From sequence record OM858838: 64,000 nucleotides of DNA; one strand, written 5' to 3'. The position numbers were made by a program, and so were the translations under genes. Below the pieces are notes generated by a model. It had not been told where the DNA came from. It was given only the letters and a program-made list of their open reading frames with translations, and did not search any database. Numbering within the stretch: the stretch's first letter is position 1; each line of letters begins with the position of its first letter. This DNA comes from Shigella phage B2. Shown here one piece after another: positions 1,439 through 45,766 of the stretch.

Positions 1439-1683
1439 TGGATATCGCATTTGTAGTATCAAAAGTAATTGTTACAGAGTACACACTGCTTAGGCAGTGG
1501 TGGCCTGAACAGTTACGCGAGTCTAGATATGTCGATACAGATATGACTAGAACCTACTTCTTAGATAGACTTCCCTCTCCTGAATTGTATGAGCTTATGG
1601 ATAGGCTTAATGCAGAAGGAAGAACCTATCGATTTATGGACTTAAGAGGAGTGGACTCAGAAGATGCGTCACATAATCTTTGA
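1438..1683 (+). CDS. hypothetical protein
   Basis: 81-aa ORF in tightly packed + strand operon. Confidence 0.4.
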   Translation: MDIAFVVSKVIVTEYTLLRQWWPEQLRESRYVDTDMTRTYFLDRLPSPELYELMDRLNAEGRTYRFMDLRGVDSEDASHNL

Positions 1684-3319
1684 ACAGAACCAAAGATATC
1701 CAATAGCAATTCTCATCAAACCACAGCAACTAAAGAAGCGTGAGTTACAGGAAGCGTATATCGACCCTACTGGAATCAAGCCAAAGCAATTCATTGCATT
1801 TGACCTTGAGTACAATGGTAAGAAAGCTCCTGTATCTATGCAGAAAGACTATCTTAAAGACCTGTTACCAGAGCTATGCAACTTAAGAACAGAGTATGTT
1901 CTATGTTGCGATAGTGCTTACTTCAAGACTCTAACCAAGCAAACCAAAGCAGAACCTCATTATGGTTATGTATTGCCTTGTGCTATTGCTGGTTTCGAGC
2001 ACTTGAATATTATCTTTTGTCCTAACTATGCTCAGATTTTCTATGACCCATCAGTTCAGGATAAAGTCGATTTAGCACTTAAAGCATTGGTAGATAAAGT
2101 GAATGGGCAATACCAAGAGATTGGTAAGGATATTATTCATTCTGCTTATTACCCTTCAACAGTTGAAGACATTGAAGCTTGGCTTGAATCTCTTCATCAA
2201 TATCCAGTATTGGCGTCAGATATTGAGGCATTTAGCCTCAAATTCTATACAGCAGGTGTAGGTACTATTGGTTTTGCATGGGACCAACACAATGGAGGAG
2301 CATTCGCTGTTGATTACACGAATGAACCAGACAAGGCTAATAGGATAAGGCAGGCTCTTAAGAAGTTCTTTGAAACTTATAAAGGCAAACTGATTTGGCA
2401 TAACGCTAGTTATGACTTAACAGTGCTTATCCATCAGCTTTGGATGAAAGGTCTAATAGACCAGAAAGGACTGCTTAAGGGGTTGCATATTATGTGTCGT
2501 GATTTTCACGATACTAAGATTGTAACTTATCTGGCTACAAACTCTTGTGCAGGTAATGAATTGGGACTGAAAGCTCAGGCTCATGAATTTGCTGGCAACT
2601 ATGCACAAGAAGATATTAATGACATTACTAAGATTCCTCTTCCAGAGTTACTGGAATACAACTTAGTTGACTGTTTAAGCACTTGGTATGTTGCAGACAA
2701 ACATGCAGATACTATGGTGCTGGATGAACAGTGGGAAATCTATAATGACCTAATGTTACCTTCGCTGAAGAATATTATTCAGATGCAATTAACTGGTATG
2801 CCTATTGATATGGCAGAAGTTAAGAAGGTTAAAATAGAGATGACTAAAGAGCGTGATGGATATCTCAATGCTATCCGTTCATTTGCTGTAGTAGATTTAC
2901 TAGTTCATAACTTGCGTGAACAACATGTAGCTACTCGTAATGCTGCCCTTAAAACCAAGCAAATTACAATGTCTGATGATGAGACATTAAAAATAGAGTT
3001 TAATCCAAACTCTAACCCTCAGATGCAAGAACTCTTGTATGAGATTATGGGATTACCTGTAATCGATTATACCGAATCTAAACAACCTGCTACTGGAGCA
3101 GATACTTTAGATAAGTTAATTAACCATACAACAGATGACCGTCAGAAAAAGATACTCGAATGCCTTATTAAGTATTCTAAGGTAGAGAAGATTTTATCTG
3201 CATTCATCCCTGCATTTGAAGAAGCACCTTTAGCCGAAGATGGTAACTACTATCTGTTCGGTAGCTATAACTTAGGTGGTACTGTATCCGGTCGTTTGAG
3301 TTCATCAAAGCCTAAATAA
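1664..3319 (+). CDS. family-A DNA polymerase, 5' part (3'-5' exonuclease + N-terminal polymerase region); putative exon 1 ends at 3313
   Basis: 551-aa ORF with exo motif FDLEY and C-terminal GRLSSSKP, the first half of the conserved Pol A motif RLSSS-PNLQNIP; stop codon 3317-3319 lies inside the proposed intron. Confidence 0.8.
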   Translation: MRHIIFEQNQRYPIAILIKPQQLKKRELQEAYIDPTGIKPKQFIAFDLEYNGKKAPVSMQKDYLKDLLPELCNLRTEYVLCCDSAYFKTLTKQTKAEPHYGYVLPCAIAGFEHLNIIFCPNYAQIFYDPSVQDKVDLALKALVDKVNGQYQEIGKDIIHSAYYPSTVEDIEAWLESLHQYPVLASDIEAFSLKFYTAGVGTIGFAWDQHNGGAFAVDYTNEPDKANRIRQALKKFFETYKGKLIWHNASYDLTVLIHQLWMKGLIDQKGLLKGLHIMCRDFHDTKIVTYLATNSCAGNELGLKAQAHEFAGNYAQEDINDITKIPLPELLEYNLVDCLSTWYVADKHADTMVLDEQWEIYNDLMLPSLKNIIQMQLTGMPIDMAEVKKVKIEMTKERDGYLNAIRSFAVVDLLVHNLREQHVATRNAALKTKQITMSDDETLKIEFNPNSNPQMQELLYEIMGLPVIDYTESKQPATGADTLDKLINHTTDDRQKKILECLIKYSKVEKILSAFIPAFEEAPLAEDGNYYLFGSYNLGGTVSGRLSSSKPK

Positions 3320-4025
3320 ATTGGGCTGTTTAAACTTCGTGAATTCGGGGAAAATCCAGAACGGACAATCCCGAGCCAAGTCAACCAATCATGTCTTAAG
3401 AGGCAGAATGGACACTAAAAAATTAGAATATTTATATGAAAACACTTCTTTATCTCAGAAAGAGATTGCTAAGTGTTTAGGATTAAAATCTGCTAGGGCT
3501 GTTCAAAAATATTGTTACAGACACTATACAAGTGCCTATCGTAAAGAAAGGCATTCCAAGCTATTAGCTAAAGCTAAACTAGGAAGTTTAAACCCTATGT
3601 TTGGTAAATCTGGTTTATACCACCCCAGATATCTAGGAGTTGTCTCTGACAACAAAGGGTATTGGATGGTATTAAAACCAGAGTGGTATACAGGGCGTAA
3701 AAGCAGTAAGCATGTATTTTTACATTCTGTAGTTGTATGTGAACATCTAGGATGGACAGAAATACCGAAAGGGTATGTAGTTCATCATTGTGATTTTGAC
3801 CCATCAAATAATGATTTTGATAATTTAGTGGTGCTTACTGTAGCAGAACATATGAGCTTACATGCAGCATTGAAAGGTGTAACGACTATCTCGAAAGAGA
3901 GTACACTCAAGTGGGTGGAAGCGCGAAGGGCTGGTAACAGCCATGATATAGTCTGACCTGTATAGGAATATACAGCAGCACTGAATAGTGCGAGTACAGC
4001 TTAACGAACTGTACTGAACGTAGTG
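3314..4025 (+). other. putative group I intron in DNA polymerase gene (carries HNH endonuclease ORF)
   Basis: 5' splice site after U3313; exon agccu can pair with intron gggcu (3323-3327) as P1 with U.G at the splice site; intron ends on G4025; hairpins ctgtata-ggaa-tatacag and gtacag-n9-ctgtac in 3' region; splicing 3313/4026 gives in-frame GRLSSSKP-NMQQIP. Confidence 0.55.
3418..3956 (+). CDS. HNH homing endonuclease (intron-encoded)
   Basis: HNH motif HHCDFDPSNNDFDNLVVLTVAEHMSLH; start moved to ATG 3418 with GAGG RBS (track start 3321 lies in intron 5' structure). Confidence 0.75.
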
Positions 4026-4967
4026 AATATGCAACAAATCCCATCCTCTAAGAGTCCTTATGCCAAGCCTATTAAGCGATGCTTTAAAGCTGGTAAAGGT
4101 TGGCTTCTTATTGGGTTAGACTTTGCATCTCTAGAGGACCGTATTTCAGCTCTGACAACCAAAGACCCCAATAAACTTAAAGTTTATACTGATGGGTATG
4201 ATGGTCATTCTCTCAGAGCATTCGCTTACTTTGGCGACCAAATGCCTGATATTCAGAATACAGTGGATAGTATTAATAGTATTCAGGACTTATATAAGGA
4301 CTTTAGACAAGAATCTAAAGCTCCTACTTTTGCACTTACCTATCAAGGTACTTATCACACATTGATGGCTAACTGTGGCTTCCCAGAAGACAAAGCGAAA
4401 ATGGTTGAAAAGAGGTATCACGAACTCTATTTCGTCTCTGACCAATGGGTAGACGCCAAGTTAGCACAAGCCAGCAAAGATGGTTATATCACTGCTGCAT
4501 TCGGATTAAGAATCCGTACTCCATTACTCAAAAATGTTGTCTGGGGAATTAAACAAACACCATATGAAGCCAAAGCAGAAGGCAGAACTGCTGGTAATGC
4601 TTTAGGTCAGTCTTGGTGCTTGTTAAATAACCGAGCAGCAAATGAGTTTATGGAACGTGTATGGAATTCTCCTTATGCAGATGTAATCAAACCATGCGCT
4701 CAAATTCATGATGCTCAGTATTATCTGGTTCCAGATGATATTGATATTGTTCATTGGGTTAATGAGAACTTAGTTGAGTGTGTTCAATGGCAAGACCATC
4801 CCGATATCTATCACGAGGAAGTGAAGTTAGGAGGAGATTTAAGTGTCTTTTACCCATCATGGGCTAATGATATCTCCTTAAAGAATGGAGCTTCTAGAGA
4901 AGAAATCTTAGATACATGTGAAGTTGGATTGGATAAGTATCTTCACCCGGAGAAATATAAAAAATGA
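4026..4967 (+). CDS. family-A DNA polymerase, 3' part (palm/fingers); putative exon 2
   Basis: NMQQIP completes the split motif; motif A LDFASLEDRI, motif B KAPTFALTYQGTY, motif C QIHDAQY. Track ORF starts at GTG 4023. Confidence 0.8.
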   Translation, partial: NMQQIPSSKSPYAKPIKRCFKAGKGWLLIGLDFASLEDRISALTTKDPNKLKVYTDGYDGHSLRAFAYFGDQMPDIQNTVDSINSIQDLYKDFRQESKAPTFALTYQGTYHTLMANCGFPEDKAKMVEKRYHELYFVSDQWVDAKLAQASKDGYITAAFGLRIRTPLLKNVVWGIKQTPYEAKAEGRTAGNALGQSWCLLNNRAANEFMERVWNSPYADVIKPCAQIHDAQYYLVPDDIDIVHWVNENLVECVQWQDHPDIYHEEVKLGGDLSVFYPSWANDISLKNGASREEILDTCEVGLDKYLHPEKYKK

Positions 4968-5341
4968 GTATCTTACAGTCCCCTATTGATAATGCTCCTG
5001 CAATCTTACAGGAAGCACATCGTTGTATTGCTGACAGAGCACATGAACGTGACCAAGAATCTGAACGTTCAATGGAACGCACTGTAGCAGCCTTCAATGC
5101 AATGTATAAGCTCAACCTGACAGAAGAACAGGGTTGGATGTTTATGGTCTTCCTGAAAGCTGCAAGAGCTTCAGGAGGCTCATTCAAGCTTGATGACTAT
5201 GTTGATGGCTCTGCTTACTTTGCGTTAGCTGGTGAAGCTGCTATGCCACATCCTCAATTAGAACTGTCACTTTCTGAACCAGAAATGACTAGAAAACATG
5301 CAGAACATTTCGGAATTCCATTAGGAAAGGAACAAATCTAA
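4964..5341 (+). CDS. hypothetical protein
   Basis: 125-aa ORF, start overlaps polymerase stop. Confidence 0.45.
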   Translation: MSILQSPIDNAPAILQEAHRCIADRAHERDQESERSMERTVAAFNAMYKLNLTEEQGWMFMVFLKAARASGGSFKLDDYVDGSAYFALAGEAAMPHPQLELSLSEPEMTRKHAEHFGIPLGKEQI

Positions 5342-6105
5342 TGCAAGTTAAGTATGTAGACCATATGGGTAATGACCAACGTATTGTTGATGTTGCTCGT
5401 CAGTCATTTGCTAAGACAGATGCCACTGTACGTACTGAAGCTCAGAACCAAGGATTGATTCGTTATTTAGCTGAAGGTATTTCTTCTAAAGAAAGAGATT
5501 CAATTATCTTATCTATCCTGAAAGGTGTAAGTAATGAATTCTATTTTGATACTGAAGAAGATGCCGAGAAAGCTGCTGAAGAATTGTATAGAGATATTCG
5601 TCACCAAGCAGTGCATTGGACTCCATTTGCTCATACTGCAATAACCCTTCAGATGCAGGCTCCTATTCCTATTCGTACCCAAGCTTTTAAACATAAGCAG
5701 GGTTTAGTAGAGAATGAGGAATCTCGTCGATATATCAGTACAACGCCTGAAATATTTGTACCTGAATTTCGTTTAAGACCTGAAGGTTCAATCAAGCAAG
5801 GTAGTGCTGGTATTCATCCTGCTAATGATGATTGGAAACATACATACATTCAGATGACACAGGATGCTGTGTTTACTTATGAACGTATGATTGCAGAAGG
5901 TATTGCTCCTGAACAAGCCAGATTCATCTTACCTCAAGGTGTAGAAGTTAACTGGACTTGGACTGGCAACTTATTAGCTTTTGCTAACTTCTATAACAAA
6001 AGAAGTGATGCCCATGCTCAACAAGAAATCCAAGATTTAGCTGAGATGGTTCGTGCAATCATTGAACCACTATTTCCAATATCTTGGAAAGCTCTTACTC
6101 AATAA
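5341..6105 (+). CDS. ThyX-like flavin-dependent thymidylate synthase (variant signature)
   Basis: Recalled ThyX blocks: VDHMGNDQRIVDVARQSF, TPFAHTAITLQMQAPIPIRTQAF, ESRRY, ARFILPQGVEVNWTWTGNLLAFANFYNKRSDAHAQQEIQDLA; canonical RHR appears as KHK. Confidence 0.65.
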   Translation: MQVKYVDHMGNDQRIVDVARQSFAKTDATVRTEAQNQGLIRYLAEGISSKERDSIILSILKGVSNEFYFDTEEDAEKAAEELYRDIRHQAVHWTPFAHTAITLQMQAPIPIRTQAFKHKQGLVENEESRRYISTTPEIFVPEFRLRPEGSIKQGSAGIHPANDDWKHTYIQMTQDAVFTYERMIAEGIAPEQARFILPQGVEVNWTWTGNLLAFANFYNKRSDAHAQQEIQDLAEMVRAIIEPLFPISWKALTQ

Positions 6106-10662: not shown

Positions 10663-11406
10663 ATGTCTCTGTTAAAAAATCTGGAAACTAAAGCTGGCAT
10701 CGAAGGTGAAAAGGATATTCTGGGCGGTGATGGTGCTCTTGAATCAGGTCTGTATGACCTGACTATCAAAGTAGCATACGTCACTACCTCTAGTGGTGGT
10801 GCATTAGCTTTGAATACCGTATTTGACTATAACGGTAAAGAAGTACGTCAGCAGTTCTGGATGACTTCTGGTACTGCCAAAGGTGGCAAGAACACCTATA
10901 TCGATAAGAGAACTGGTAAAGAACAGTATCTCCCAGGATTCCTGACAGCTAATAGCTTGGCTCTCCTGACTGTTGGTAAGGAAATTAGCCAACTGGAGTT
11001 GGAAGAGAAAACCATCAAACTGTATGACTTTGATGCCAAAGGTGAAGTACCTACTAAAGTACAGGTATTCACTGAACTGACTGGTCAAACAATCACTGCT
11101 GGTGTACAGAAACAGACTGTTGATAAGAACATTGATTCTGGTCAGGTAGATGGGCAAGGTCAGAAAATCTATGTCCCATCTGGGGAGACTCGTGATATTA
11201 ACGAAGTTGTTAAGTTCTTCCGTGCAGATGATGGTCTGACTGTTCCTGAAATTGAAGCTCAGGTAACTGAAGCTAAATTTAAAAATGATTGGGATGCCAA
11301 GTATACTGGTAAAACCATCAATAAAGCCAAAGGCTCTAAAGATGGTGTAACAGCAGGTGCTCCATCAGCAGGAGCTAAACCTACTAAATCCCTGTTTGCT
11401 AAATAA
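10663..11406 (+). CDS. putative single-stranded DNA-binding protein
   Basis: 247-aa ORF at end of replication module, where N4-like phages place SSB; no motif proof. Confidence 0.3.
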   Translation: MSLLKNLETKAGIEGEKDILGGDGALESGLYDLTIKVAYVTTSSGGALALNTVFDYNGKEVRQQFWMTSGTAKGGKNTYIDKRTGKEQYLPGFLTANSLALLTVGKEISQLELEEKTIKLYDFDAKGEVPTKVQVFTELTGQTITAGVQKQTVDKNIDSGQVDGQGQKIYVPSGETRDINEVVKFFRADDGLTVPEIEAQVTEAKFKNDWDAKYTGKTINKAKGSKDGVTAGAPSAGAKPTKSLFAK

Positions 11407-11414
11407 GGATTTGT

Positions 11415-11660
11415 ATGGATTCTACAATTAGTTCAAATGACCATTTGCCTGTAATAATCATTAAGATTAAAGAGATTAAAACTTTCAAAGGTACATTTAC
11501 AATTATTCCTGAGAATGAAGAACAAACTGAGTTCGAAGTTCGTCCAGAATATATTGCTAAATTTGCACCGAAGGTTGGAGGCTACTATATAGTCTATGCA
11601 GGAGGGTACGAATCTTACTCAGAAGAAGACCCTACTCCACCTAAAGTTGAAATCCAATAA
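11415..11660 (+). CDS. hypothetical protein
   Basis: 81-aa ORF followed by terminator. Confidence 0.4.
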   Translation: MDSTISSNDHLPVIIIKIKEIKTFKGTFTIIPENEEQTEFEVRPEYIAKFAPKVGGYYIVYAGGYESYSEEDPTPPKVEIQ

Positions 11661-13187: not shown

Positions 13188-16100
13188 TTAGTACAAACTC
13201 ACCAGAGGGTGTACTGTAAGTCCATTCAATGCTGTACCCATCCCAACGTTATAACTCAGACTACCAGTTACTAAGTTGGCTTCAGTAATGTTAGGTAATC
13301 CAGATTCAACACTGTTACCAAACATCAGGAACAATGCTCTCAATGGATTCTCTCTAATCGTTCTCAGAATGATTTTCTGGATACGAATCTTATAGTTCAG
13401 GAACCAAGTTAAACCAATAGCATCCAGATAGAATCTGGTACGACTTGGTAACACATCATAGTTCACGAACTCATCCATCACTCTGTTAAGCGCACTGTCT
13501 TTATCCATTGGATTACTCTTACGAGTAGTCAAATGTTTATACAATGAATACTTAGCAACAAAGTCACCATACTGGATTGAACGGTTCAGTAAGAAGTACA
13601 CGTTACTATCTCTTGAAAGGGTAACTTCCTTAGCAACACGTTTAACACTATCTGGAATACCAGATGTGTATTCATCCATCTTATTAAGTAATTTATCTTT
13701 CAATGAATAGTTATCTTGCTGTCCTAAATCCTCTGCAATGGTAGGCAGTAAACCTGCTTTGATTAAATCAGCAACAGGGTTACGAGCCTGAGAATCTTTC
13801 AGTTCTGAAATCTTTCTCTGATATTCGTCAGCCATTTTAGGATTATGGTTTACAGCCAGATAGTGAGAATACTCGTTAATCAGTTTCTCATTCTTTCTGT
13901 ACTCCTCAGCAGCCAGTACAGCAGTAGACATATCCTTAGCCATAGTCACAGGGCTTACACCAACAGTAGCTAAGTGAACCATGTTAGAAACAATGTTCGC
14001 TGCTGATACAACTATTGAACGAACTACAATCCAATCCTTCATTTCCTTCACGAATTCCATCAGACCACGTTCACCAAGTCTCAGATAGCGAGCAGCATTC
14101 TTACCTAAGAAGGTTTCAGCAATGCTGGTGAAAGCTTTCTGGAACTCTTTAGAGTAACCAGTCTGACCAGTCCACATATTCAGTACAGAAGGTTCACGAT
14201 AACCAAATGCGTTATTCAGTAAATCCTTACGTACTTTAATCTTACCATCAGGCCAAATCTTCTTAGCTTGTTCCTTCATCTCAATAGGCATCAGTTCATA
14301 AATCTCTTTTAACTGATGGTCTGTAGAGTTCTCATCCATAGTAATGTATTGGTATGCCCTGCCTTCTCTGGCATCCTTCACATACATTTCATGGAGTCTC
14401 TGGAGCAACATTTCATTGTATCTGGCTGCCTGAATCTCCTCAGCAATACGACCTTCCCAAGCACCGATTACCTTAGTGAAATCATTATCTACATCCAAAT
14501 GTGCTTCTTTGTTAGCTCTAGGCATCTGATATGAGTAACCCATAATTGAACCAGCACGATTCAATACAGGTTGCATATATGAGTTATTGCCAGTAGGCAT
14601 AGGAGCATTTGCATCAAATAAATTATCAATACTGCTTCTCTTACGAGTAGATAAATTATTCTTCTCAGTAGCTCTCCATATACCCGGAGTCATAGCACCA
14701 TTCACAGTTCTACCTGTAATTGGGTTTACTCCACCTACGGTGTTTTGCAGGGTACTCATTACACCAGCAATCCAACGAGGTTCACCACCATTGTTTGAAT
14801 GGTAGTAATACATTGGTTCCTTGTTGGTATCCTGTGGGTCACGAGCAACCTGAGCACCTCTGGTATACCCTCTACGAGATAAGCTTGGTTCATCTTTAAT
14901 AGATGCAATAATCACTTTCTTGTTAGGGTCTGACAGAGTAGGAGTAAATCCTTTAATCCCAGCTAGTGCTTGGTTTTGACCAGACTTAGCTAACTCTGCA
15001 CCCTGCAAGCTTGAATAATATTTGAGAGTGAAAGTCATCCCATTATTATTTGGTTCACCTTTAGTCATCTCTCTATTAATCAAATTACTTACAGTAGCAA
15101 TATCAGTCTGAGATAACTCTTTCAGTGCTGCCAGAGAAGCCATAGTATCAACCAATTGAGTAACAGTATTAACTGTTGCATCATTAGGTCTAACTCTGCC
15201 AGTACCAATTAAACGAGCAATAGCTGCTGCGTTAGGTAACTGATAAGCCAGTGGACTAACTCCATGAACCATTTGTTTAGCTAATCCATATGCAGACTTA
15301 ATATAGAAAGGAGCATTCTGTGCACCTGCTGTCTGCAATTGAGATTCAATAGAAGCAATCTCTTTAGCCAGTTCAGTTGGATTGGTTAAGAGTTCATTCA
15401 GTCGTGCCAAGTCATATCCATTGGCAAACAGATAAGCCATATCAGTATTAGCAACTACTCTCTGAATAGCTTCTTTCTCTGTTTGGTTCAGGGATACAAA
15501 TGTACTCTCAATCATACCCGGAACCATCTCACGAATAATCTGACGTGCTCTATCAGCAGCCATATTCTTCTGAGTCAGTAAGGTATGAATGGTGCTATTG
15601 GTTTCGTTAGAACCAATGAACTCATTAATCAGTTCAGCAACAGTACCTAACTTGCCATTCTGGTGAATGGTCATATAAATGTTAGTGATAGCATCACGTA
15701 CATCCTGAGCATCTTGGTCATTGAATACTGCTGAACCAGCAGTGATACCAAATGCTACAGACTTAGGTACTTTCTTCTCTACCTTGAGTAACTGTCTACG
15801 GATAGTGTGACCAAAGGATTTGAGTTTATCCTGAGTAGTATCAGTGATTTTCTCTGCACCTCTAACCAATCTACCAAACAGATTGTCTCTGGCTTCACTA
15901 TCAACATGACTAATATTCTTAGCCAGTTTAGTTAAGCGAGAAGCAACGTCAGTATTACCCAAAGACTTAGTAGCCAAACCCGATAACCAAGTAAGAATGG
16001 CATTGGTTAAATCACCAATACGTTCTCTCAGAGTTGTAGCTGGAGTCTGTCTGGTACGCTTAACACTAATCTGAGAAAGTTTATTTCTCAGTTGTTCATT

Positions 16101-19100
16101 GGTTTCTGCCAGTGCAATGAAGTTAGCCAGTCTATTAGTACGACCAGTAGCATCAGTAGTCACAGCAGTGTTACCAAATACAGCATCATATCTTTGTTTA
16201 GCTAATGCCATTTCACTAGCTGAACGATTATTAGGGTCAGTTAAGAAGTCTTCTACTTTCAAGGTATCTCTGGCTTGTGCATACAAACTACGTGCAACCA
16301 GAACACTTGGAGAAAAGTTCTCTAAACCATACTTCATAGAAACTTGCAGCATCTTGAATACAAATGCTTCTTTCTCACTCATGTTAAAACCATGAGCAAT
16401 CAATGCATTTGGAGAGTTATCAATCTCTGGGTCGATACTATCTACCAGAAGTTTTTCCTGATAATGGTCTAAACCAGAGATTTGCTGACCAGTATTCTTA
16501 ATCACTTTAATGATATTTGACTGGAGATAATCCAGTGTATCAGTCAAATGATTCACATGGTCTTGCGTAGCTTTACCAGCATCCAGTTTATTAAACAGAG
16601 TTTCTGCATCTAATCTATTGATGTTATTAGCATTGGTTTGAGCATAGCTAGTTTCATCATTAGATTTAACCGGATTAGTAGAGTCAGTTAAAGCAACTGT
16701 ATGCCCTAACAGACGTGACCAGTAAGAGGTAACATCTGGATTAGAGCCAATAGCAAACAGGCGCTTAATAGAATCAGCTAACTGTTTGAGTACATTGGTA
16801 ACAGTCCCAGCAATAGTCTTCTGAGTCATTGCATCAATCATTCTTGGGTTAACTAATCCCCATGCAATAAACTCAGCAGTAGCTTGAGACATATTACCAG
16901 AAGCGATATGAGTATTAATCAGGTCTACTACAGCATCAGTTTCTGGATTGGTGCTTGAATATTCATTCACAAACTTATTCATCAATCCTTCAATTGAAGC
17001 TACTTCTACTCTCTGAGCAGGAGTAATTGCTTCTGGATTGCTGTAATAGTTATGAACAGTATCAGCAGTAGCAGCATGAATTAACTCATGCATTACTGTC
17101 TCAATAGACTGAGAACCAATATAGATGTTCTGGCCTTGTGTAAGACCCAAGAACGTGTCATTAAACTCAACCTTAGTATCAGGTGTCATTTCCTGTTGAA
17201 CGCCTGAGAGAGCTTCTGGTGAGCCTACATACACATTAATATCATTAGGGATAGAATTGATAATCTTATCCAGAATGAAACCAGTGATTCTATTCTGGCG
17301 AGAAGGCAGAGATTTAGCTGCCTCTCTTACAGCAGCAACCACATCACCTTTAGCCAGAACTTTAACACCTTCATGACCTTTTACAGTTCTACCATTTCTA
17401 TCCAGAGCCTCAGTCATCTGACGAGTAGGAGGAATGGTTACTCTACCTTTAGGTAGAGATACAGAATCCATAGTAGGTAATTCAGTATTGGCTACTAACT
17501 GTTCCAGAGGAGTTCTGGTATCAGTTGCTTCTCCATCAGTCTGTTTACCATTCTTAACATTGAATGGAATATTGGCACCAGTCATCTGGTTAATGGAGGT
17601 AATAGCCTCACCACCTAACAGACCTTGTTTAATAGCAGTCTGAGTAGCAGCTTCTCTCTTAAGCAGAGTAGTGAATGCTTCAACCACTTCTGGACTAGTA
17701 GGTGCATTAGTTTCATCAGCACCAATCATTTCCATAATTCCACGGAAAGACTGTTCCAGACGAACATCTGCTTCTGGACCTAATTCCTCTGCCAGATTCA
17801 CTCCATCCATTGCTTGCTCAAAACGGTTAGTGAAATCTTGCAGTAAATCGAATTCATTCCAGCTTTGCAGAACACCTTGGTTAATAGCCTGAGAACCAGT
17901 ATCCAAATGAGATACAGCATTGATGTAGCCATCGAATACGTTCAGAGCATTGTTAGGATTGATATCACGAGCAATAGCCTGCATAGCTGCTTCTACAGAC
18001 TGAACCAGTAAAGGCATTACACGAGTACCCGGTTCAGTATAAGTAGGCATATCTACACCGAAGGTAGAACGACGCATCTTACCATCCAGTTCTCTACGTC
18101 CTCTGGATTCCATTCTGTGTACGTCAGATGGAACACGCCCTTCCTCACTCAGAAGAATACCTTCATTCAGCTTTTCAACATCTAAGTTGTTAGCAGTAAA
18201 CCAAGAATTGAAGATTGGCATTGAACCAATCAAGTAATTCTTAATGTCGTTGTACTGCTGCTGAGATAGAGATTCATATTTAGATAACTTACCTTCTTTA
18301 CGAAGTTCAGTTTCTAATCTCTCTACTTCTTTATTCCAACGAGACATGAATACTTCATGCATTACAGCAGCAGCATAGACCATCATCTTGCCACGATTAA
18401 CTACAGTACCAAATTCATTAGCAATGGATTCGTTTACTGCTGCACCAATACCAATCTTGATGTTCTGAGTAATAGCTTCGATTTGTTCACCGTCAAATTC
18501 AAACATAGTCACATCCTGACCTAAGTTGATAGGTGAACCAATCTGAACCCAAGAACCATTTCTGAATACCCGAGCAGTAGTCAGTTCATTAGTTGTATTA
18601 GTTAAGTCATTGATGTGTTCAATAGCAGCATCACGTTCTTCCTGATTAGTAGCTGCATCAACTGCTCTCAATGCTTCTGTGATTGCTTCGTAATATCCAT
18701 TAGCAATACCCATAGCAATCTTTCTATTGATTGCAGTAGCACCGCCTGAATAAACAGTTACTGTTACTGGATTCTTAAGTAAACCTCGACCAATCTGAAT
18801 TGGATGGTCTACATTTTCACCTTCAACAATATTCACATCACCAATCAGTTTGGATGCAGCAAGAGTAACCCTCATCTGATTCTTCAGACGTTCAATTTCA
18901 CGCATTTCTTTTTGCTGGAATTGACGTGGTTTATTCTTCATTGCAGCAATTCGGTTAGGAATATTTCTAACTGAATCCATCATTCTATTGATGTATTGCT
19001 GACTATCAGCAGCAGCAGTCTTATACAGGTCTAAGAATCCCGGTTCTTCAGCAGCATCATTATACAGACGGTCAGACTGCCCATAGAAGAAACCGCCCTT

Positions 19101-22100
19101 CTCCAATTTATTCAGTAAGTCCTGGTTCACATCTTTCAAACCAAGCTGAACAATGGAGTTAAATGGTCCATTAGTAACACCATCAAGCTCCAGCATTACA
19201 TGAGTCTGGAATGAGGTCTTACCTTGTTCTACAGCCAGTTCATATTGAGCCTGTGCATACAGAGCATGGAGAGTCTTAGTCTTCTCCTTACCTGCTTTAA
19301 CAGCCTGCAACAAAGTCTCAGCATCACTATCACTGATGGCATCCTGATTCTCAGCAGCTTTAAGGATATCGATAGCATCTCTGAACAGACCAGTACTGAT
19401 AGCTTTATTCAGTCTATCTCTGGCTGTTTCAGAAGACAGCTTATCAACAGCAATATCTAAGCCCTGAGCAATTGCATAATCAAGGAATGCACCATGCTGA
19501 GGGTTATTCAGTTCAATGGTAGATGGTTCAACAGTAACCAGTTCACGATGTAATTTAGCTGACTGAGGATTCAGGTCACCAGAGTTAAGCATCATACGGA
19601 AGTTACTGATTACGTTATAACCAAAGTAAACAGGAGTGGTAGCCAAAGGTAATCCAGCTTCAACCATTCTAGTTAAACCATTAACCAGAGTATTTATATC
19701 TCTTTCAATGGTACGGTTAGAACCCTGAATAGATTTCAGGTGAGCACCGTTAGTATTCTCTTCTGACTGAATGCCTAACATTCTACCAATCCACTGAGTA
19801 CCTAACTTATCAAGCATCAGGTCATGCAGACCCATGTTAATGAAGTGAGGTTGTTTGCTAGCTTTGTTACGAGCAGCAAGCATCTTCTCAGGGATATCCT
19901 GACCACCACCATTCTTAACTTTAGTGCTTTGACCTTTTGGTGGAGTACCAAAGTATGCACCTGCTCTTTCTCTCTGAGGATTAGTCAGTTGACCTAACAG
20001 GTCATTAGAATTCTGCATCAATTCTACTAAACGAGTAGCAGCAGGAGACTCTTCATTCATACGAATGAATACACGAGAGTTCTTCATGTTTGAGTCATTT
20101 ACTTTAGTAGAACCAACAGCAGCTAATTCAGAGTTTTTAACAACTGATTCCTGAACCAGATTAGCATTAATCATTACGTTCAATACTTCAGATGCCATTG
20201 CTTTAGACACAGCATCACGTACAGAGATAGGTGCATTAGGGTCTGCATTGATACCTAATACTCCAAAGATTTCTCTGCTTAAATCATCAATAACATTCTG
20301 ACGGTCAGTACCAACGTTACGCAGTAAGTCAGTCTGTTCTACAGTTGGCCTAGTCTTGTTATCTAAACCAAGAATATCCATTACTGTACGGTCATCATTG
20401 AATGTAGTTTCAGATGCATTACGTACAAACCACTGCATCATTCCAGCAGTCATTGCTTCAATTACTGGCTGCGGTAAGAAGTAAACATTCTCACCATTGA
20501 TGTTTCTAACTTCATCAAAGTACTCAACAGGATAAGTTTCCCAGAAGATACGCTGACCTTCAGGAGTTAATTTACCCCAAGACTGAATCAGAGATTGTTC
20601 AATAGCAGGGACTAAACCAGCAAACTGACGAAGTACATTTACTTCTTTCTCAGTTACTTGTTCTGGTTTGATATAACCTTTAAACAGATTCTGAATCTGA
20701 GTAATAGGATTAGAACCATTAGTAAAGATGCTATTAAGTCTCCCAGAGAAATTAGAAGTTCTCAGGAAAGCTGAACGTTTACCGGTAGGTTTAAACCATT
20801 TCTTAACTTGGTTTGTAGCTTGATATTCTTTATCTACATCAGAAGTAGACTTAGCATCAGAGCGTATTGTCTCTGCTTGCAGTCCATTCAGAATGTCATA
20901 GTTAACACCTTTCTCTGAACCAAGGTCTAATTGAGACTCATCCATCAGGTCAGTTTCTACATCAGTAGGTTTTTCCTGTAACTGGATATCAGATTCTACA
21001 GTATCTGGTTTCTCAAACAGTTCACCCTGTACAGGTTCAGTACGTACAGCTTCCTCAGACGCTACTGGCTGAGTTATTTCAGGCTGTACTGGTGTTTGTA
21101 CCTCTTCCTGAGAAGTCTGCTCAGAAGTCTCTACAGGAGCTTCTACAGTAGTCTGCTGAGATACAGGTTGAGGGAAAGTATTCCTGACGTGGTTCAGGAA
21201 ATCAGTACGTGCCTGAGAAGGTGTAGCCCATACTTCACGAGTACTACGTAAACTGAAGATATGCCCATCTGGTGTCATAACGTAAGGTACATTAGTGTCA
21301 CCATAATTAAAGGAAGACAGAACATCCTGTTTACCAGTAACTGTGTCCTCTCCAGGAATAATAGTAGTTTTACCACCATTAACCGGAACGGCACGAATAC
21401 CCCCCATGTCTTTACCAATAGCAATATAGTCTTTGCCATTATAGGTAAAGTACTGACCTAACTGCATATACAGTGCCTGCTGCTGTCCAGTAAATTCAGC
21501 AGATTTCATCTCAGGACCGGCAGGGATACCACTAGAAGTAGTCTGCTGAGGAGCTGGTTTAGTTTCTTTTTTAACAGGTGCAGATTCCTGAGTCTGGTTG
21601 TTCACTTCTTCAGAAGCAACAGGAGCAGACTGTGCAGGGATATCTACAGGTTTACCATCTACCAGTTGACTGGTAAGGGTATGAGCCAGTCTTACTGCAT
21701 CAGCATCATTACGAATCTCTTGGATTAATCCTTTAGAACGTACCGGATGGTACGTCATTGGATTTCCATCGAGAGACAGGTATGGCTGACCAGTAGTAGG
21801 ATTAATTACTTCTACAGGTTGATTTCCAGTAAAGTTCTGAGCAGCTTGGTCAAAGGCAGCAGCCTTAGTTTCCATATGTTCAGCAAAGCGATTCAGGTGG
21901 TCTAACAGACCCTGAGCACGAGCAGTATCACCTAATGATAATGCACGGAAGATACCTTGCTGATATTGCTGGATACCAATAAAGCCATCCGAACCTTCAC
22001 GTACATCTTTACCTACTTGGCTCATAGCCTTACCAGTAGCAGAGATGACCTTAAGTTTATCCACATCCTGCTGACTTAAACCAAGAGTATCAGCAGAGTT

Positions 22101-24413
22101 AACTAAACGGTCAGCTACATCTGGAGTAATAGAAGATGCATCTAAGTTCATCTGAGCCAGAACAGATTTAACATTCTTCTGAACTTCAGGAGATTTGTAA
22201 GTCTCTGGAGTAATCTCAGAAGGTAATGATTCCATGACTTTAGTCATTTCATCAGGAGTCAGTTTAAATCCTTCAGCAGTAGTCTTAACTGCCTGTACAT
22301 CAGGATGATTCAGTACAGCATTAATATTATCAATAGCAGTCTGATACTGAGCTTTCTGGTCTTCTGGAGCAGCATCCATCTGTGCCTGAATCTGAGGTAA
22401 TGCTTCTTCATATGCAGAGATAACACTGTTACCAACAGTAGCTAAATCTCTACGAGAAGCTTCATCTAGATTACGTTCTTTAATGGCACGAGAGATTCTC
22501 AGAATAGAATCAGGAGAACTGATTTCTTCTTCTGGAATAGCTTTGAATACTTCTTTGGCAGCAGGTTCAGTAACAGCATCTACAGCTTTAGTAGTTACAG
22601 TTGGTTCTACTGGCGCTTCAGTATTAGTTTGTGGGGCAGCTTGTTTAACTGATTCATTGGCAGCAGATACAGTATTTCTAAAGTCTTGTGCTCTGCTTTC
22701 AGTTCTACGAGTCTGTCTTGCATCAAATGCTGTACGACCTTGTTGAACTCCTTCTTGGATTGCTCTAGGTGTCTCACTGATAGCTGAACCAACAGCACCC
22801 ATACCCGCACCAGCAATAGCAGATTCAGCAACGTTTGAACCAATACCCTCAATGAGGGATTGAGATTCGTCAGCAGAGCTACGTACCCCGAGATTAGAAG
22901 CGAACTGACCAGAAGCGCCCTGTAATGCTTCCTCAACAGTCTCTTTAGCAGCATTCTGTGAAACCCTTGAAGATGCAGCCAGTAATCCTTTACCTTCCAG
23001 TAAAGATGGAGTTAACAGACGTGATTCAAAGGGAGCAGCAACCTTACCAGTTAATGCACCTAAAGTACCTGCCACAGCAGAAGTAACATTACCTGCTTGA
23101 GTACGTACCTGACTTCTAGCCTGAGATGGTGTAGCACCTTCAGCAATAAGGTCACGATACATTGGTGATTTTTCAGCTAACTGAGCATCAGTTAATTTAT
23201 CAATCTCATCCAGTGACTGTTGAGCATTTGAACCAGCTTCTTGGAAACCAACGTAACCAATAAATGCTCTTTCAGCAGCATCCTGTAGACGCTTTCTACC
23301 AAACTCAGTAGCAGCTAATTTAGTAGCAAAGTCCTCACCATACTCTTGAGCCAATTGCTTCAAAGCACCACGAGTAGCTAACTTACCTACGATACCACCA
23401 GTCAGTAAGTCTGGAGCAGATTCAGCAATCAGAGTAGTTAATGCACCTGGTGAAGTACCATACTGTTCAGCAGTATTAACGAACTGACGTAACTGTTCCT
23501 TAGCACCAGCTACTAATGGATTATCACCTTTAGCAATATCAGCAGCTTCTCTTGCTGCACCGCCTTGTTCAAAGCGTTGCTTATTGGCTTCGATAACAGA
23601 TTGTTCATATTGAACAGCAGGAGAATACTGAGAACGCTGTTCATCAACGAATTCTTTTAATGGCTTATCAATACCTGCTTGGTCTAACAGAGTAGGTTGC
23701 CCTACTTGGTCTTCTTGACCAGTAACATTAGCAATTAAATCCTGAGCATTCTGTAATGCTAAGTTACCTAAACTAGTAGCAAATCTTGCAGTATTACCTG
23801 CCCATACTTGGGCAGCATTACCAATGTCTGAAAGTTCCATAGGAGCATTTTCAAACTGGTCTGTATTAGCTTGAGCAATATTTAATGCAAGTTTGTCTCT
23901 AGCCGCTTGAGGACCATACTTCTGCTGTAAAGCAGAGATAGGCATATCTTTTAAATCAGCAAGATATTGGTCATTTGGATTAGTCTGTGCAGCTTGATTA
24001 GGAGCTACATAGTTAGGATGACTTGGGTCAAAAGGACCAGTACCACCAAATTCAGGAGATACTTGAGGATTAATCATCCTACGATAGAAAGGCTTAGTTG
24101 CTGCAATAGCATCATAGTTAGCCTGCATATCAGGAGTGGTTGGTTGAGTCTCAGGAATATTAAAATTATTAATATTCTGACCAGTCAACATTGCCTGCAT
24201 CTGTTCACGAGTATATTTAGGACCAGATTCAGCCAGACGAATAGCTTCCTGTCCTCTCTGATATTCAGGAGAACCTACAGGGAAATCTGTTTCTACTCCG
24301 GGTACTGGAGCACCCATCTCTACTTGTTTCTGCTGAGTGGCTTGATTTAGTTGTTGTGTTTTTTGTAAATCAACTCCAGCTAATTGTTGTTCTTTTTCAA
24401 ATCCGGTAGCCAT
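13188..24413 (-). CDS. virion RNA polymerase (N4 gp50-like vRNAP)
   Basis: 3741-aa ORF, the N4-like hallmark; T7-like motif B candidate IGRGLLKNPVTVTVYSGG; RBS GAGGA before start. Confidence 0.8.
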   Translation of the reverse strand: MATGFEKEQQLAGVDLQKTQQLNQATQQKQVEMGAPVPGVETDFPVGSPEYQRGQEAIRLAESGPKYTREQMQAMLTGQNINNFNIPETQPTTPDMQANYDAIAATKPFYRRMINPQVSPEFGGTGPFDPSHPNYVAPNQAAQTNPNDQYLADLKDMPISALQQKYGPQAARDKLALNIAQANTDQFENAPMELSDIGNAAQVWAGNTARFATSLGNLALQNAQDLIANVTGQEDQVGQPTLLDQAGIDKPLKEFVDEQRSQYSPAVQYEQSVIEANKQRFEQGGAAREAADIAKGDNPLVAGAKEQLRQFVNTAEQYGTSPGALTTLIAESAPDLLTGGIVGKLATRGALKQLAQEYGEDFATKLAATEFGRKRLQDAAERAFIGYVGFQEAGSNAQQSLDEIDKLTDAQLAEKSPMYRDLIAEGATPSQARSQVRTQAGNVTSAVAGTLGALTGKVAAPFESRLLTPSLLEGKGLLAASSRVSQNAAKETVEEALQGASGQFASNLGVRSSADESQSLIEGIGSNVAESAIAGAGMGAVGSAISETPRAIQEGVQQGRTAFDARQTRRTESRAQDFRNTVSAANESVKQAAPQTNTEAPVEPTVTTKAVDAVTEPAAKEVFKAIPEEEISSPDSILRISRAIKERNLDEASRRDLATVGNSVISAYEEALPQIQAQMDAAPEDQKAQYQTAIDNINAVLNHPDVQAVKTTAEGFKLTPDEMTKVMESLPSEITPETYKSPEVQKNVKSVLAQMNLDASSITPDVADRLVNSADTLGLSQQDVDKLKVISATGKAMSQVGKDVREGSDGFIGIQQYQQGIFRALSLGDTARAQGLLDHLNRFAEHMETKAAAFDQAAQNFTGNQPVEVINPTTGQPYLSLDGNPMTYHPVRSKGLIQEIRNDADAVRLAHTLTSQLVDGKPVDIPAQSAPVASEEVNNQTQESAPVKKETKPAPQQTTSSGIPAGPEMKSAEFTGQQQALYMQLGQYFTYNGKDYIAIGKDMGGIRAVPVNGGKTTIIPGEDTVTGKQDVLSSFNYGDTNVPYVMTPDGHIFSLRSTREVWATPSQARTDFLNHVRNTFPQPVSQQTTVEAPVETSEQTSQEEVQTPVQPEITQPVASEEAVRTEPVQGELFEKPDTVESDIQLQEKPTDVETDLMDESQLDLGSEKGVNYDILNGLQAETIRSDAKSTSDVDKEYQATNQVKKWFKPTGKRSAFLRTSNFSGRLNSIFTNGSNPITQIQNLFKGYIKPEQVTEKEVNVLRQFAGLVPAIEQSLIQSWGKLTPEGQRIFWETYPVEYFDEVRNINGENVYFLPQPVIEAMTAGMMQWFVRNASETTFNDDRTVMDILGLDNKTRPTVEQTDLLRNVGTDRQNVIDDLSREIFGVLGINADPNAPISVRDAVSKAMASEVLNVMINANLVQESVVKNSELAAVGSTKVNDSNMKNSRVFIRMNEESPAATRLVELMQNSNDLLGQLTNPQRERAGAYFGTPPKGQSTKVKNGGGQDIPEKMLAARNKASKQPHFINMGLHDLMLDKLGTQWIGRMLGIQSEENTNGAHLKSIQGSNRTIERDINTLVNGLTRMVEAGLPLATTPVYFGYNVISNFRMMLNSGDLNPQSAKLHRELVTVEPSTIELNNPQHGAFLDYAIAQGLDIAVDKLSSETARDRLNKAISTGLFRDAIDILKAAENQDAISDSDAETLLQAVKAGKEKTKTLHALYAQAQYELAVEQGKTSFQTHVMLELDGVTNGPFNSIVQLGLKDVNQDLLNKLEKGGFFYGQSDRLYNDAAEEPGFLDLYKTAAADSQQYINRMMDSVRNIPNRIAAMKNKPRQFQQKEMREIERLKNQMRVTLAASKLIGDVNIVEGENVDHPIQIGRGLLKNPVTVTVYSGGATAINRKIAMGIANGYYEAITEALRAVDAATNQEERDAAIEHINDLTNTTNELTTARVFRNGSWVQIGSPINLGQDVTMFEFDGEQIEAITQNIKIGIGAAVNESIANEFGTVVNRGKMMVYAAAVMHEVFMSRWNKEVERLETELRKEGKLSKYESLSQQQYNDIKNYLIGSMPIFNSWFTANNLDVEKLNEGILLSEEGRVPSDVHRMESRGRRELDGKMRRSTFGVDMPTYTEPGTRVMPLLVQSVEAAMQAIARDINPNNALNVFDGYINAVSHLDTGSQAINQGVLQSWNEFDLLQDFTNRFEQAMDGVNLAEELGPEADVRLEQSFRGIMEMIGADETNAPTSPEVVEAFTTLLKREAATQTAIKQGLLGGEAITSINQMTGANIPFNVKNGKQTDGEATDTRTPLEQLVANTELPTMDSVSLPKGRVTIPPTRQMTEALDRNGRTVKGHEGVKVLAKGDVVAAVREAAKSLPSRQNRITGFILDKIINSIPNDINVYVGSPEALSGVQQEMTPDTKVEFNDTFLGLTQGQNIYIGSQSIETVMHELIHAATADTVHNYYSNPEAITPAQRVEVASIEGLMNKFVNEYSSTNPETDAVVDLINTHIASGNMSQATAEFIAWGLVNPRMIDAMTQKTIAGTVTNVLKQLADSIKRLFAIGSNPDVTSYWSRLLGHTVALTDSTNPVKSNDETSYAQTNANNINRLDAETLFNKLDAGKATQDHVNHLTDTLDYLQSNIIKVIKNTGQQISGLDHYQEKLLVDSIDPEIDNSPNALIAHGFNMSEKEAFVFKMLQVSMKYGLENFSPSVLVARSLYAQARDTLKVEDFLTDPNNRSASEMALAKQRYDAVFGNTAVTTDATGRTNRLANFIALAETNEQLRNKLSQISVKRTRQTPATTLRERIGDLTNAILTWLSGLATKSLGNTDVASRLTKLAKNISHVDSEARDNLFGRLVRGAEKITDTTQDKLKSFGHTIRRQLLKVEKKVPKSVAFGITAGSAVFNDQDAQDVRDAITNIYMTIHQNGKLGTVAELINEFIGSNETNSTIHTLLTQKNMAADRARQIIREMVPGMIESTFVSLNQTEKEAIQRVVANTDMAYLFANGYDLARLNELLTNPTELAKEIASIESQLQTAGAQNAPFYIKSAYGLAKQMVHGVSPLAYQLPNAAAIARLIGTGRVRPNDATVNTVTQLVDTMASLAALKELSQTDIATVSNLINREMTKGEPNNNGMTFTLKYYSSLQGAELAKSGQNQALAGIKGFTPTLSDPNKKVIIASIKDEPSLSRRGYTRGAQVARDPQDTNKEPMYYYHSNNGGEPRWIAGVMSTLQNTVGGVNPITGRTVNGAMTPGIWRATEKNNLSTRKRSSIDNLFDANAPMPTGNNSYMQPVLNRAGSIMGYSYQMPRANKEAHLDVDNDFTKVIGAWEGRIAEEIQAARYNEMLLQRLHEMYVKDAREGRAYQYITMDENSTDHQLKEIYELMPIEMKEQAKKIWPDGKIKVRKDLLNNAFGYREPSVLNMWTGQTGYSKEFQKAFTSIAETFLGKNAARYLRLGERGLMEFVKEMKDWIVVRSIVVSAANIVSNMVHLATVGVSPVTMAKDMSTAVLAAEEYRKNEKLINEYSHYLAVNHNPKMADEYQRKISELKDSQARNPVADLIKAGLLPTIAEDLGQQDNYSLKDKLLNKMDEYTSGIPDSVKRVAKEVTLSRDSNVYFLLNRSIQYGDFVAKYSLYKHLTTRKSNPMDKDSALNRVMDEFVNYDVLPSRTRFYLDAIGLTWFLNYKIRIQKIILRTIRENPLRALFLMFGNSVESGLPNITEANLVTGSLSYNVGMGTALNGLTVHPLVSLY

Positions 24414-40611: not shown

Positions 40612-40629
40612 AAATACCTCTATTTTTTC

Positions 40630-41862
40630 TTATACAACAGCACCAGTTGAGTCTACCCATGCAGTTCCATTAAACCAAATAGGTTTACCTAACGTAGTAT
40701 CAAAATGTTGTGTACCAGTTAATACTCCAATAGGTCTTTGTGCAGTAGTACCACTCAGTCCTAACGTAACAATAGGAGTCAAGGTTACTACAATATTACC
40801 CGGCAGATAAGTTAACTGACCATTCACTACACTTTGAATATATACGTTGTTAGGTACACTAGAAGGAATCCAATAGTAAACCTGAGACACAATATCATAC
40901 AGGATACGCTTACCATTTAGAGTCTCTACAGTGTTATCACTTTTGATAACCTCTGAGTCCTTCATGTTAGTTGCTCTAGCAATCTCATACAGGCTTCTAT
41001 CTGGAGATTCTAATGTAACTAACTCACCTCCAAGCTGAACTACTAATCTATCATTAGTAGATAATGGTTCAGTCAGTAAGATACGTTTGTTATCTTGGTC
41101 TACAGTATAAGATTGAGTTGATAATCCACCTTGATATCTCAATCCATTCTTAAAGATTGCTGGTACAGTTTGGAAGGTATATGGAATAACAATTACCTGT
41201 TCTCCGCCAACTGCTGCACCATTGTTATAAATCCAGTTAATAACAGTCCAACTATCAATGTTTGGATTATCAGGTACAGCAGGATTACCTGAAAGCATCA
41301 GAACAACTTCATCACCTTGCTCTAATGGCTGAGCTAAAGTAACAGTCAGATTAACAGAGTTAAAAGTAAATCCTCTGCCTACCTGTTGACGGAAACCTTC
41401 CACATAAATTTCTGGAACACCAATAGTGTAATCAGGAACTACAATAGTAGTTTCTCCACCAGCAGCAGAACCATTATTAAATACAAATGGGATATATGCA
41501 CCAGTGCCTGTAGCAGCACCGCTATTAGATGAGCCAACAACTACCCAGCTACCAGTAGCAGTAGGGTCACTTGGTAATACTCCAGTACGGTCACCTTCTA
41601 CATAGAGGTAATCAGTATAGATTCTGACACCTGTAGGGGTAGAAGAATACACACGAGTATACTTAGCAGTTGTAGGTAATTCCTGTAACTCTGTAACTGA
41701 GTCAACTGTAATCAATACACCATAATCATTTAAAAAATTATAGATGAACTGAATCTCACCCAGATTATCATATACAGTTTTAACTACATCGTAAGCAGTA
41801 CCAATGAATTTCTCCACCATACCTGCTTGATTACCACAGCACGTATTTGTAGTTCGAATCAT
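40630..41862 (-). CDS. tail/structural protein with internal tandem domain duplication
   Basis: Two ~70-aa repeats (PFVFNNGSAAGGETTIVVPDYTIGVPEIYVEGFRQ / NWIYNNGAAVGGEQVIVIPYTFQTVPAIFKNGLRYQ). Confidence 0.45.
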   Translation of the reverse strand: MIRTTNTCCGNQAGMVEKFIGTAYDVVKTVYDNLGEIQFIYNFLNDYGVLITVDSVTELQELPTTAKYTRVYSSTPTGVRIYTDYLYVEGDRTGVLPSDPTATGSWVVVGSSNSGAATGTGAYIPFVFNNGSAAGGETTIVVPDYTIGVPEIYVEGFRQQVGRGFTFNSVNLTVTLAQPLEQGDEVVLMLSGNPAVPDNPNIDSWTVINWIYNNGAAVGGEQVIVIPYTFQTVPAIFKNGLRYQGGLSTQSYTVDQDNKRILLTEPLSTNDRLVVQLGGELVTLESPDRSLYEIARATNMKDSEVIKSDNTVETLNGKRILYDIVSQVYYWIPSSVPNNVYIQSVVNGQLTYLPGNIVVTLTPIVTLGLSGTTAQRPIGVLTGTQHFDTTLGKPIWFNGTAWVDSTGAVV

Positions 41863-45106: not shown

Positions 45107-45178
45107 GGTTCTATGGTCCAGTGGAAAGGATATTCCCCTGTCACGGGAAAGGCCCGAGTTCAATTCTCGGTAGAACCG
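45107..45178 (+). tRNA. tRNA-Asp (anticodon GTC)
   Basis: Hand-folded cloverleaf: acceptor ggttcta/tagaacc, D gtcc/ggat, anticodon stem ttccc/gggaa loop ctGTCac, T ccgag-ttcaatt-ctcgg, CCA encoded. Confidence 0.8.
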
Positions 45179-45185
45179 CCAATTA

Positions 45186-45260: not shown

Positions 45261-45270
45261 CCAAATAATG

Positions 45271-45355: not shown

Positions 45356-45361
45356 ACAAAT

Positions 45362-45666: not shown

Positions 45667-45766
45667 TAGTTCTTATCAGGGATTACTTACTACTATATAT
45701 CATACATTACCTCGCCTGGTGTGTTGGTGTTACCTCGGTAGATAAGTAATCCACTAATAAGAATTT

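Follow-up and report, generated by a model that had tools for sequence, protein, structure and literature searches.

The question raised by the DNA polymerase locus of Shigella phage B2 is whether a family-A polymerase that lies in two open reading frames (ORFs), with an HNH endonuclease gene between them, is one gene interrupted by an intron or two genes parted by a free-standing endonuclease cassette. The locus lies in a stretch of 64,000 nucleotides (sequence record OM858838; this whole stretch is hereafter called the window), and an earlier note made from the letters alone had favoured a group I intron, naming a polymerase split into two genes as the other possibility. According to the analysis presented here, positions 3314 to 4025, on the + strand like all other features of this locus, are with a probability of roughly 90% a mobile self-splicing group IA2 intron in the polymerase gene. 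This reading follows from the exactness of the insertion, the reading frame restored on its removal, a covarying ribozyme, homology with the intron of the cyanophage Pf-WMP3, and exon substitutions fitted to the helices P1 and P10.

An exact insertion and the frame restored without it

The upstream ORF (1664-3319) ends in ...GRLSSSKPK followed by a stop codon and the downstream ORF (4023-4967) begins (V)NMQQIP, both being found in the ORF list as the earlier note had described them. The Pfam profile DNA_pol_A is split over the two, its positions 14-126 being matched upstream and 127-303 downstream, consecutively, and the upstream ORF also matches DNA_pol_A_exo1, the 3'-5' exonuclease domain. 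Exon 1 of the polymerase gene (1664-3313) would accordingly carry the exonuclease domain and the N-terminal part of the family-A domain, and exon 2 (4026-4967) the rest of the latter, both exons being collinear with the gene of Salmonella phage FSL SP-058; an unspliced reading of exon 1 arrives at a UAA stop at 3317-3319. The break separates the Pro codon from the Asn codon in the conserved motif RLSSS-x-P/N-x-Q-x-IP (the slash marking the insertion point).

By megablast and by its neighbouring genes (helicase, ThyX, a PD-(D/E)XK nuclease and a virion RNA polymerase of 3741 amino acids), the window belongs to an N4-like phage of the family Schitoviridae, genus Ithacavirus, the closest phages at 96-97% identity including Salmonella FSL SP-058, SP-076, UTK0001/2, SP154, S5, and As2. 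The polymerase is a single uninterrupted gene of 2592 nucleotides in all nine Ithacavirus relatives compared, against which the window aligns in two pieces. Comparison with such intron-less polymerases, a check named in the earlier note, returns an exact difference: 3314-4025 are the 712 nucleotides by which the window exceeds the nine relatives, and nothing alike is present at their polymerase locus.

Once these 712 nucleotides are taken out, an ORF of 2592 nucleotides emerges, the same length as the polymerase gene of FSL SP-058, with 860 of 864 translated positions identical in an ungapped alignment (protein identity 99.5%). The in-frame join of U3313 to A4026, which had been predicted to recreate the polymerase motif, is thus borne out, the junction peptide GRLSSSKPNMQQIP (SSSKPNMQQIP) being the same in the joined ORF and in SP-058. 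The joined-exon RNA would read ...AAAGCCU/AAUAUGCAA... at the junction, with SSSKPNMQQIPSSK as the junction-spanning polymerase peptide, and the intron-less target sequence of FSL SP-058 is ...TCATCAAAACCAAACATGCAACAG.... The repeat of AA at either end of the intron makes three deletion registers equivalent at the protein level; U at -1 plus a terminal G is obtained only with 3313/4026. In a wastewater-metagenome contig of 1098 bp this intron recurs within the same gene, with 98.9% identity across both junctions, and the insertion is therefore no artefact of one assembly.

The ribozyme and the endonuclease gene folded into it

At gathering thresholds, Rfam reports only seven tRNAs and no intron in the whole window. 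At a permissive threshold, its group I model RF00028 matches positions 3724-3975 with 24 bits (E=9e-4), the convincing portion being ...AUGAUAUAGUCUGACCUGUAUAGGAAUAUACAG, which represents J8/7, the 3' strand of P7, and P9. The score is held below threshold by an ORF insert of 460 nucleotides that splits the core, and the homologue that lacks the ORF, in Klebsiella phage RCIP0099, attains 70.6 bits, above the gathering score of 50. A covariance model of the family, built from nine relatives with the window left out, gave a single match in the 64 kb, counting both strands; it spans 3870-4025 with 154 bits (E about 3e-37), is full length and ends at G4025. Hence the covariance-model search advocated in the earlier note stays below the gathering score with the Rfam model and is positive with the model built from relatives. 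The same model detected no further copies of the family in the window at E up to 10, GATATAGTC was found once, and a BLAST search with the 712 nucleotides matched about a hundred phage records.

The assignment of helices was guided by the ORF-less intron of RCIP0099. P1 pairs AGCCU of exon 1 (3309-3313) with the guide GGGCU (3323-3327), and the U3313.G3323 pair that closes it, rightly singled out beforehand, marks the 5' splice site, while P10 pairs AUU (3320-3322) with AAU, the first three bases of exon 2 (4026-4028). P2 is absent. P3 consists of CUUCGUG (3335-3341) and CGCGAAG (3922-3928); P4 (3345-3350/3369-3374) encloses P5 (3355-3357/3363-3365), both aligning to their RF00028 counterparts via the ORF-less relative. 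The strands of P6 (3375-3377/3876-3878) stand on either side of the ORF, the whole of which is spanned by P6a (3381-3384/3870-3873). P7 (GACUA at 3884-3888 with UAGUC at 3949-3953) encloses P7.1 (3889-3892/3897-3900), a GUA linker (3901-3903), P7.2 (3904-3908/3913-3917), the 3' strand of P3, P8 (3929-3933/3938-3942, with a GUAA loop), and J8/7 (AUGAUA), the latter running between P8 and the 3' strand of P7; GAUAUAGUC, found once in the window, falls within the P7-P8 region. A different placement of the 5' strand of P7, directly upstream of the 3' strand of P3, was ruled out by comparison with the RCIP0099 intron, which showed P7 to be GACUA/UAGUC, with P7.1 and P7.2 intervening. Downstream follow P9 (3958-3964/3969-3975), P9.1 (3978-3982/3987-3991), and P9.2 (3993-3999/4009-4015), whose loop contains the conserved UAACGA. 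The final base of the intron is, as expected from the earlier reading, a terminal guanosine (omega-G) at 4025, where the alignment to the relatives-only covariance model also stops. All helices of the series P3-P4-P5-P6-P7-P8-P9, with the P3/P7 pseudoknot, were located, and the P3-P7 core, the absence of which the earlier note had taken as the mark of a wrong reading, is present and supported by covariation.

Covariation was tested for twelve helices in an alignment of ten ORF-deleted introns, comprising 62 pairs and 606 pair cells. Standard pairs occupy 96.0% of these cells, as against 84% in shuffled controls and 32-43% when the partners were slid by 1-3 columns; changes on both sides are seen in 30 of the 62 pairs, and none of 500 shuffles reached the observed values. 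Every helix is backed in this manner but P7, which gives no covariation signal because it is invariant in the family and offers conservation only. Pairing is complete (100%) in P3 (seven pairs in the ten sequences, three compensatory), in P4 and P5 (three compensatory pairs together), in P6a (four pairs, three compensatory), in P7.1, in P7.2 (four of five pairs compensatory), and in P9. P8 likewise has four compensatory pairs out of five, P9.2 is 91% paired with five compensatory pairs, and P9.1 is the weakest helix at 78%. Both-sided changes also affect three of the five pairs of P1 across relatives that are inserted at different sites, and the set formed by P6a and the hairpin at the ribosome-binding site of the endonuclease gene (see below) is 98.9% paired, with 5 of its 12 pairs compensatory. 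The minimum free energy fold of the ORF-deleted RNA recovers the helices with the exception of the P7 pseudoknot, P6 and P6a being recovered approximately.

Subgroup IA2 is defined by two additional helices that lie between P7 and the 3' strand of P3, namely P7.1 and P7.2, joined by G-U-A (PMC3428280). Since P7.1 and P7.2 of the window are joined by GUA, the intron is assigned to this subgroup. The intron is td-like: we take the T4 td intron to share with it core motifs such as GUAACGACUAU, GAUAUAGUCUG, the UAACGA loop of P9.2, and a 3' end of the ...GAACAUAAUG type, along with membership of subgroup IA2. Unlike the window intron, the td intron resides in a thymidylate synthase gene and includes a P2, and the endonuclease that it encodes, I-TevI, is of the GIY-YIG type.

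The exons are adapted to these helices. Three synonymous differences from FSL SP-058 lie nearest the splice sites, namely A to G at -4, A to U at -1, and C to U at +3. If these bases were those of SP-058, P1 would contain two mismatches and P10 one, whereas with those of the window all eight pairs form, the C-to-U change at 4028 (+3) creating the third pair of P10. Substitutions relative to SP-058 number 11 in the 180 nucleotides around the junction, compared with 5 in the preceding 960. Such clustering is consistent with the trace to be expected from co-conversion in homing, or with selection for splicing, and changes so tuned to P1 and P10 would be hard to explain were the structure of the RNA irrelevant. 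With a complete and covarying ribozyme, an exact insertion, and fitted exon substitutions, the identity as a group I intron that had first been proposed from inspection is upheld.

The steps of splicing proposed here follow the mechanism known for group I introns. The polymerase gene would be transcribed as a single RNA, in which the intron then folds; P1 would present the 5' splice site, and an external guanosine would attack after U3313. P10, together with the terminal G4025, would position the 3' splice site, and ligation of the exons would yield the messenger for one polymerase of 863 amino acids.

Within the intron, the middle ORF contains an I-PfoP3I-like HNH homing-endonuclease gene for 182 amino acids (3408-3956), beginning at ATG 3408, which is the first ATG with a ribosome-binding site, and ending at the stop codon 3954-3956. 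Its product matches Pfam HNH_3 over residues 104-149 (E=1.1e-10) and the protein family phrog_7545 (E=1.5e-46), in agreement with the HNH endonuclease that had been recognised from the letters. The Shine-Dalgarno sequence of the gene, AAGAGG (3398-3403), sits in a hairpin of 5 bp (UGUCU-UAAG-AGGCA, 3392-3396/3401-3405), which is 100% paired with two compensatory pairs in eight relatives and which, by analogy with other phage introns, probably limits translation of the endonuclease by sequestering that sequence. Gene and ribozyme are closely interleaved: the ORF begins in the loop of P6a, between its covarying strands, and its last 87 nucleotides (3870-3956) double as the 3' strands of P6a and P6, P7, P7.1, P7.2, the 3' strand of P3, P8, and the 3' strand of P7. 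The protein is 51-64% identical to those of the intron ORFs of BF25/12, PS3, PhAPEC5/7, Moonfish, phiL7, RCIP0039, and PPWS1. A sequence search of the PDB with it returned no match at E up to 1, the solved chain of I-HmuI included, so that the sequence does not connect it directly with I-HmuI.

Relatives of the intron

The Pf-WMP3 intron, for which guanosine-dependent self-splicing and nicking by I-PfoP3I were shown experimentally (PMC3428280), lies between Pro363 and Asn364 (...RLSSSKP/NIQQIP), with AAGCCU/GGGCUU as its P1. It shares with the window intron the same insertion point, a near-identical P1, the lack of P2, P7.1 and P7.2 joined by GUA, and an ORF that extends from P6a through P7-P7.2 and bears its HNH motif within the C-terminal half, the two proteins being 43% identical over 88% of the length. 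It differs in its host, a T7-like cyanophage (Saffermanviridae) rather than an N4-like enterobacterial phage, and in its length of 672 nucleotides, being much shorter after P9 with no obvious P9.1 or P9.2, both of which are present in the window. Splicing and nicking are experimental facts for Pf-WMP3, whereas for B2 we infer splicing, endonuclease activity, and homing. I-PfoP3I nicks the coding strand 4 nucleotides upstream of the insertion site (PMC3428280), and by homology the HNH protein of B2 would most likely nick, close to that site, polymerase genes that lack the intron in relatives infecting the same cell. Repair of the nick from the intron-bearing copy would then lead to the intron, along with some flanking exon, being copied into those genes (homing).

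Among N4-like phages, PhAPEC5, PhAPEC7, and Shigella phage Moonfish (Gamaleyavirus) carry an intron in the homologue of N4 gp39, at the same site and with the identical guide GGGCU; nucleotide identity with the window is 68-69% over 93% of the intron and that of the HNH protein 61-62%, and the PhAPEC5 record bears the annotation 'DNAP split by an intron'. They differ from the window in subfamily (Enquatrovirinae as opposed to Humphriesvirinae), in intron length (706 versus 712 nucleotides), and in compensated changes in P8 and P9.1. Literature searches on introns of PhAPEC5 and on group I introns of Schitoviridae found nothing.

The introns of phiL7, Providencia PS3, Dickeya BF25/12, Pectobacterium PPWS1, and Klebsiella RCIP0039 have cores near-identical to P3-P9 of the window, and the HNH proteins closest to that of the window, with up to 63-64% identity, are found in this group. 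According to the alignments, PPWS1 and RCIP0039 share the site between Pro and Asn with the window, PhAPEC5/7, and Moonfish. In contrast, phiL7, PS3, and BF25/12, which are T7-like or siphoviral phages, have the intron 6 nucleotides further downstream, after P-N-L, with a guide GGAGGUU that matches AACCUU. Two sites served by near-identical cores with matching guides indicate at least one shift of the family's insertion site, by two codons. The introns of Salmonella phage Vi06 and of RCIP0099 lie in polymerase motif B, and those of PS3 and Vi06 are annotated as joined coding sequences. The ORF-less intron of RCIP0099, at about 1485-1714, is unannotated in its record, both halves of the polymerase being labelled 'hypothetical proteins', and Xanthomonas phage DES1 has at 601-1304 an intron of the same family with an HNH ORF, between two ORFs likewise annotated as hypothetical proteins.

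The insertion position of the window, 674 in the numbering of E. coli Pol I, also hosts the introns of SPO1, SP82, and Bastille, with that of phiL7 at 676 and those of PhiI/W31 at 881 (PMC3428280). Like the window intron, those of SPO1 and SP82 (I-HmuI, I-HmuII) and Bastille (I-BasI) are group I introns at this position with nicking HNH endonucleases, but their hosts are phages of Gram-positive bacteria and the HNH motif is N-terminal (PMC3428280). The family and the site, a long-familiar hot-spot for insertions into phage polymerase genes, are consequently already known, and annotated in other N4-like phages, and the window introduces no new mechanism.

Competing explanations and wider implications

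Some observations do weigh against an intron that splices in B2. The window scores below the gathering score of RF00028 (24 versus 50 bits); P7 is without covariation information owing to its invariance, and P9.1 is paired in only 78%. Furthermore, a preprint on the G7C-like coliphage 10Gb, also N4-like, reports that an HNH-bearing stretch of about 800 bp inserted into its DNA polymerase gene stays unspliced and that two polypeptides make up the polymerase, the second being preceded by a Shine-Dalgarno sequence (bioRxiv 10.1101/542787). Should B2 follow this precedent, the endonuclease cassette would stay in the RNA, and polypeptides of 551 and about 313 amino acids would cooperate as a genuinely split polymerase. 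Consistent with such a split, exon 1 stops two codons past the junction, and an in-frame GTG (4023) and ATG (4029) are available after the insertion.

Other polymerase insertions are indeed found in Gamaleyavirus and Humphriesvirinae, of about 840 bp in phi G17, ST4, PGN829.1, and U1G, and of about 700 bp in SP5M and Pollock. In Pollock, SP5M, and phi G17 the site is shifted 40-100 codons downstream from that of the window, the HNH ORFs (at 3404-3964 in Pollock, 2140-2682 in SP5M, and 2015-2671 in phi G17, each in its own record stretch) overlap both polymerase parts, and the second polymerase fragment has a strong ribosome-binding site. No Rfam group I match was obtained in phi G17 and SP5M at E up to 1, nor in Pollock and Pylas at E up to 0.01. 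On these features the polymerase genes of Pollock, SP5M, and phi G17 appear to be truly split, and their type may be the one reported as non-spliced in 10Gb; judged by its description, the 10Gb insertion fits that type better than that of the window by its size of about 800 bp and its reported Shine-Dalgarno sequence. Pylas also has an HNH ORF (3390-3929 of its own record stretch) downstream of the site of the window, and its record annotates a joined coding sequence.

The window departs from these cases on several counts. It possesses a complete, covariation-supported ribozyme core and exon substitutions tuned to P1 and P10, and the homologous intron of Pf-WMP3 splices at the identical site. 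Its break lies inside a conserved motif with zero added residues, whereas both fragments of the polymerase have extra residues in Pollock, SP5M, and phi G17. Finally, no Shine-Dalgarno sequence precedes exon 2: the energy of the duplex with the 3' end of 16S rRNA is +0.1 kcal/mol before 4023 and +0.4 kcal/mol before 4029, compared with a median of -6.1 kcal/mol for the window's 34 long ORFs and of -1.5 kcal/mol at random positions. The two-gene polymerase that the earlier note had entertained is therefore disfavoured, and a genuine split in B2 is considered improbable. To be regarded with equal scepticism is the notion that the group I intron splices partly or not at all in infected cells, the polymerase being made wholly or partly in fragments. 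If that were true, a protein of 551 amino acids with the exonuclease domain, ending ...SSKPK, would exist beside a C-terminal fragment, and the ribozyme would be a dosage or timing control instead of a neutral passenger.

Still less credence is given to a decaying intron or a disrupted gene, in which splicing would be inefficient and the polymerase a pseudogene, as in a defective or misassembled genome. Nothing direct speaks for it except the sub-threshold Rfam score of the window, whereas all core helices are intact in the window copy, both exons are open and encode a protein 99.5% identical to those of functional relatives, the HNH ORF is intact, the same arrangement recurs in the independent metagenome contig, and DNA polymerase is essential for such phages. 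An intein or other in-frame protein-level insertion, which might come to mind as replication proteins are frequent intein hosts, is refuted by the sequence, the 712 nucleotides being indivisible by 3 and out of frame with the exons, with a stop two codons in, and the ORF having by Pfam an HNH domain alone with no intein splicing blocks.

Apart from the intron, the window differs from FSL SP-058 at several other loci. The thyX gene (ORF 5341-6105, +; replaced segment 5354-6100) is a whole-gene replacement, its flanks being 98% identical and the gene itself devoid of nucleotide similarity; the two ThyX proteins, of 254 amino acids in the window and 210 in SP-058, share 30% identity, in the manner of a cassette-like exchange with breakpoints at the ends of the gene. 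The virion RNA polymerase gene (ORF 13188-24413, - strand) has an in-frame insertion of 432 nucleotides (144 amino acids) at 21161-21585, which was considered as a second intron and rejected, since the ORF of 3741 amino acids is open throughout and the insertion is therefore at the protein level. An extra ORF of 81 amino acids (11415-11660, +; segment 11407-11655), absent from SP-058, follows an ORF of 247 amino acids (10663-11406) that aligns with a gene of SP-058 whose annotation reads single-strand DNA binding protein. The region 38303-41014 corresponds to the tailspike gene region of SP-058 and is mostly without similarity to it, save for one stretch of 424 nucleotides at about 70% identity; this is probably a host-range module swap. 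The seven tRNA genes found by Rfam at 45107-46338 are rearranged with respect to the ten annotated in SP-058.

For the annotation of B2, the finding means that the two polymerase ORFs should be recorded as a single gene, interrupted by a group I intron with its predicted splice junction at 3313/4026, and the HNH ORF as an intron-encoded endonuclease. Going by the records searched, in which none of the nine relatives carries it, this appears to be the first such intron of the Ithacavirus lineage. The flanking synonymous changes that install P1 and P10 neatly illustrate co-adaptation of intron and exon, or else co-conversion, and the intron family as a whole is spread over the polymerase genes of T7-like phages, siphoviral phages, cyanophages, and N4-like phages, which share little beyond the motif RLSSS-x-PN-x-Q-x-IP.

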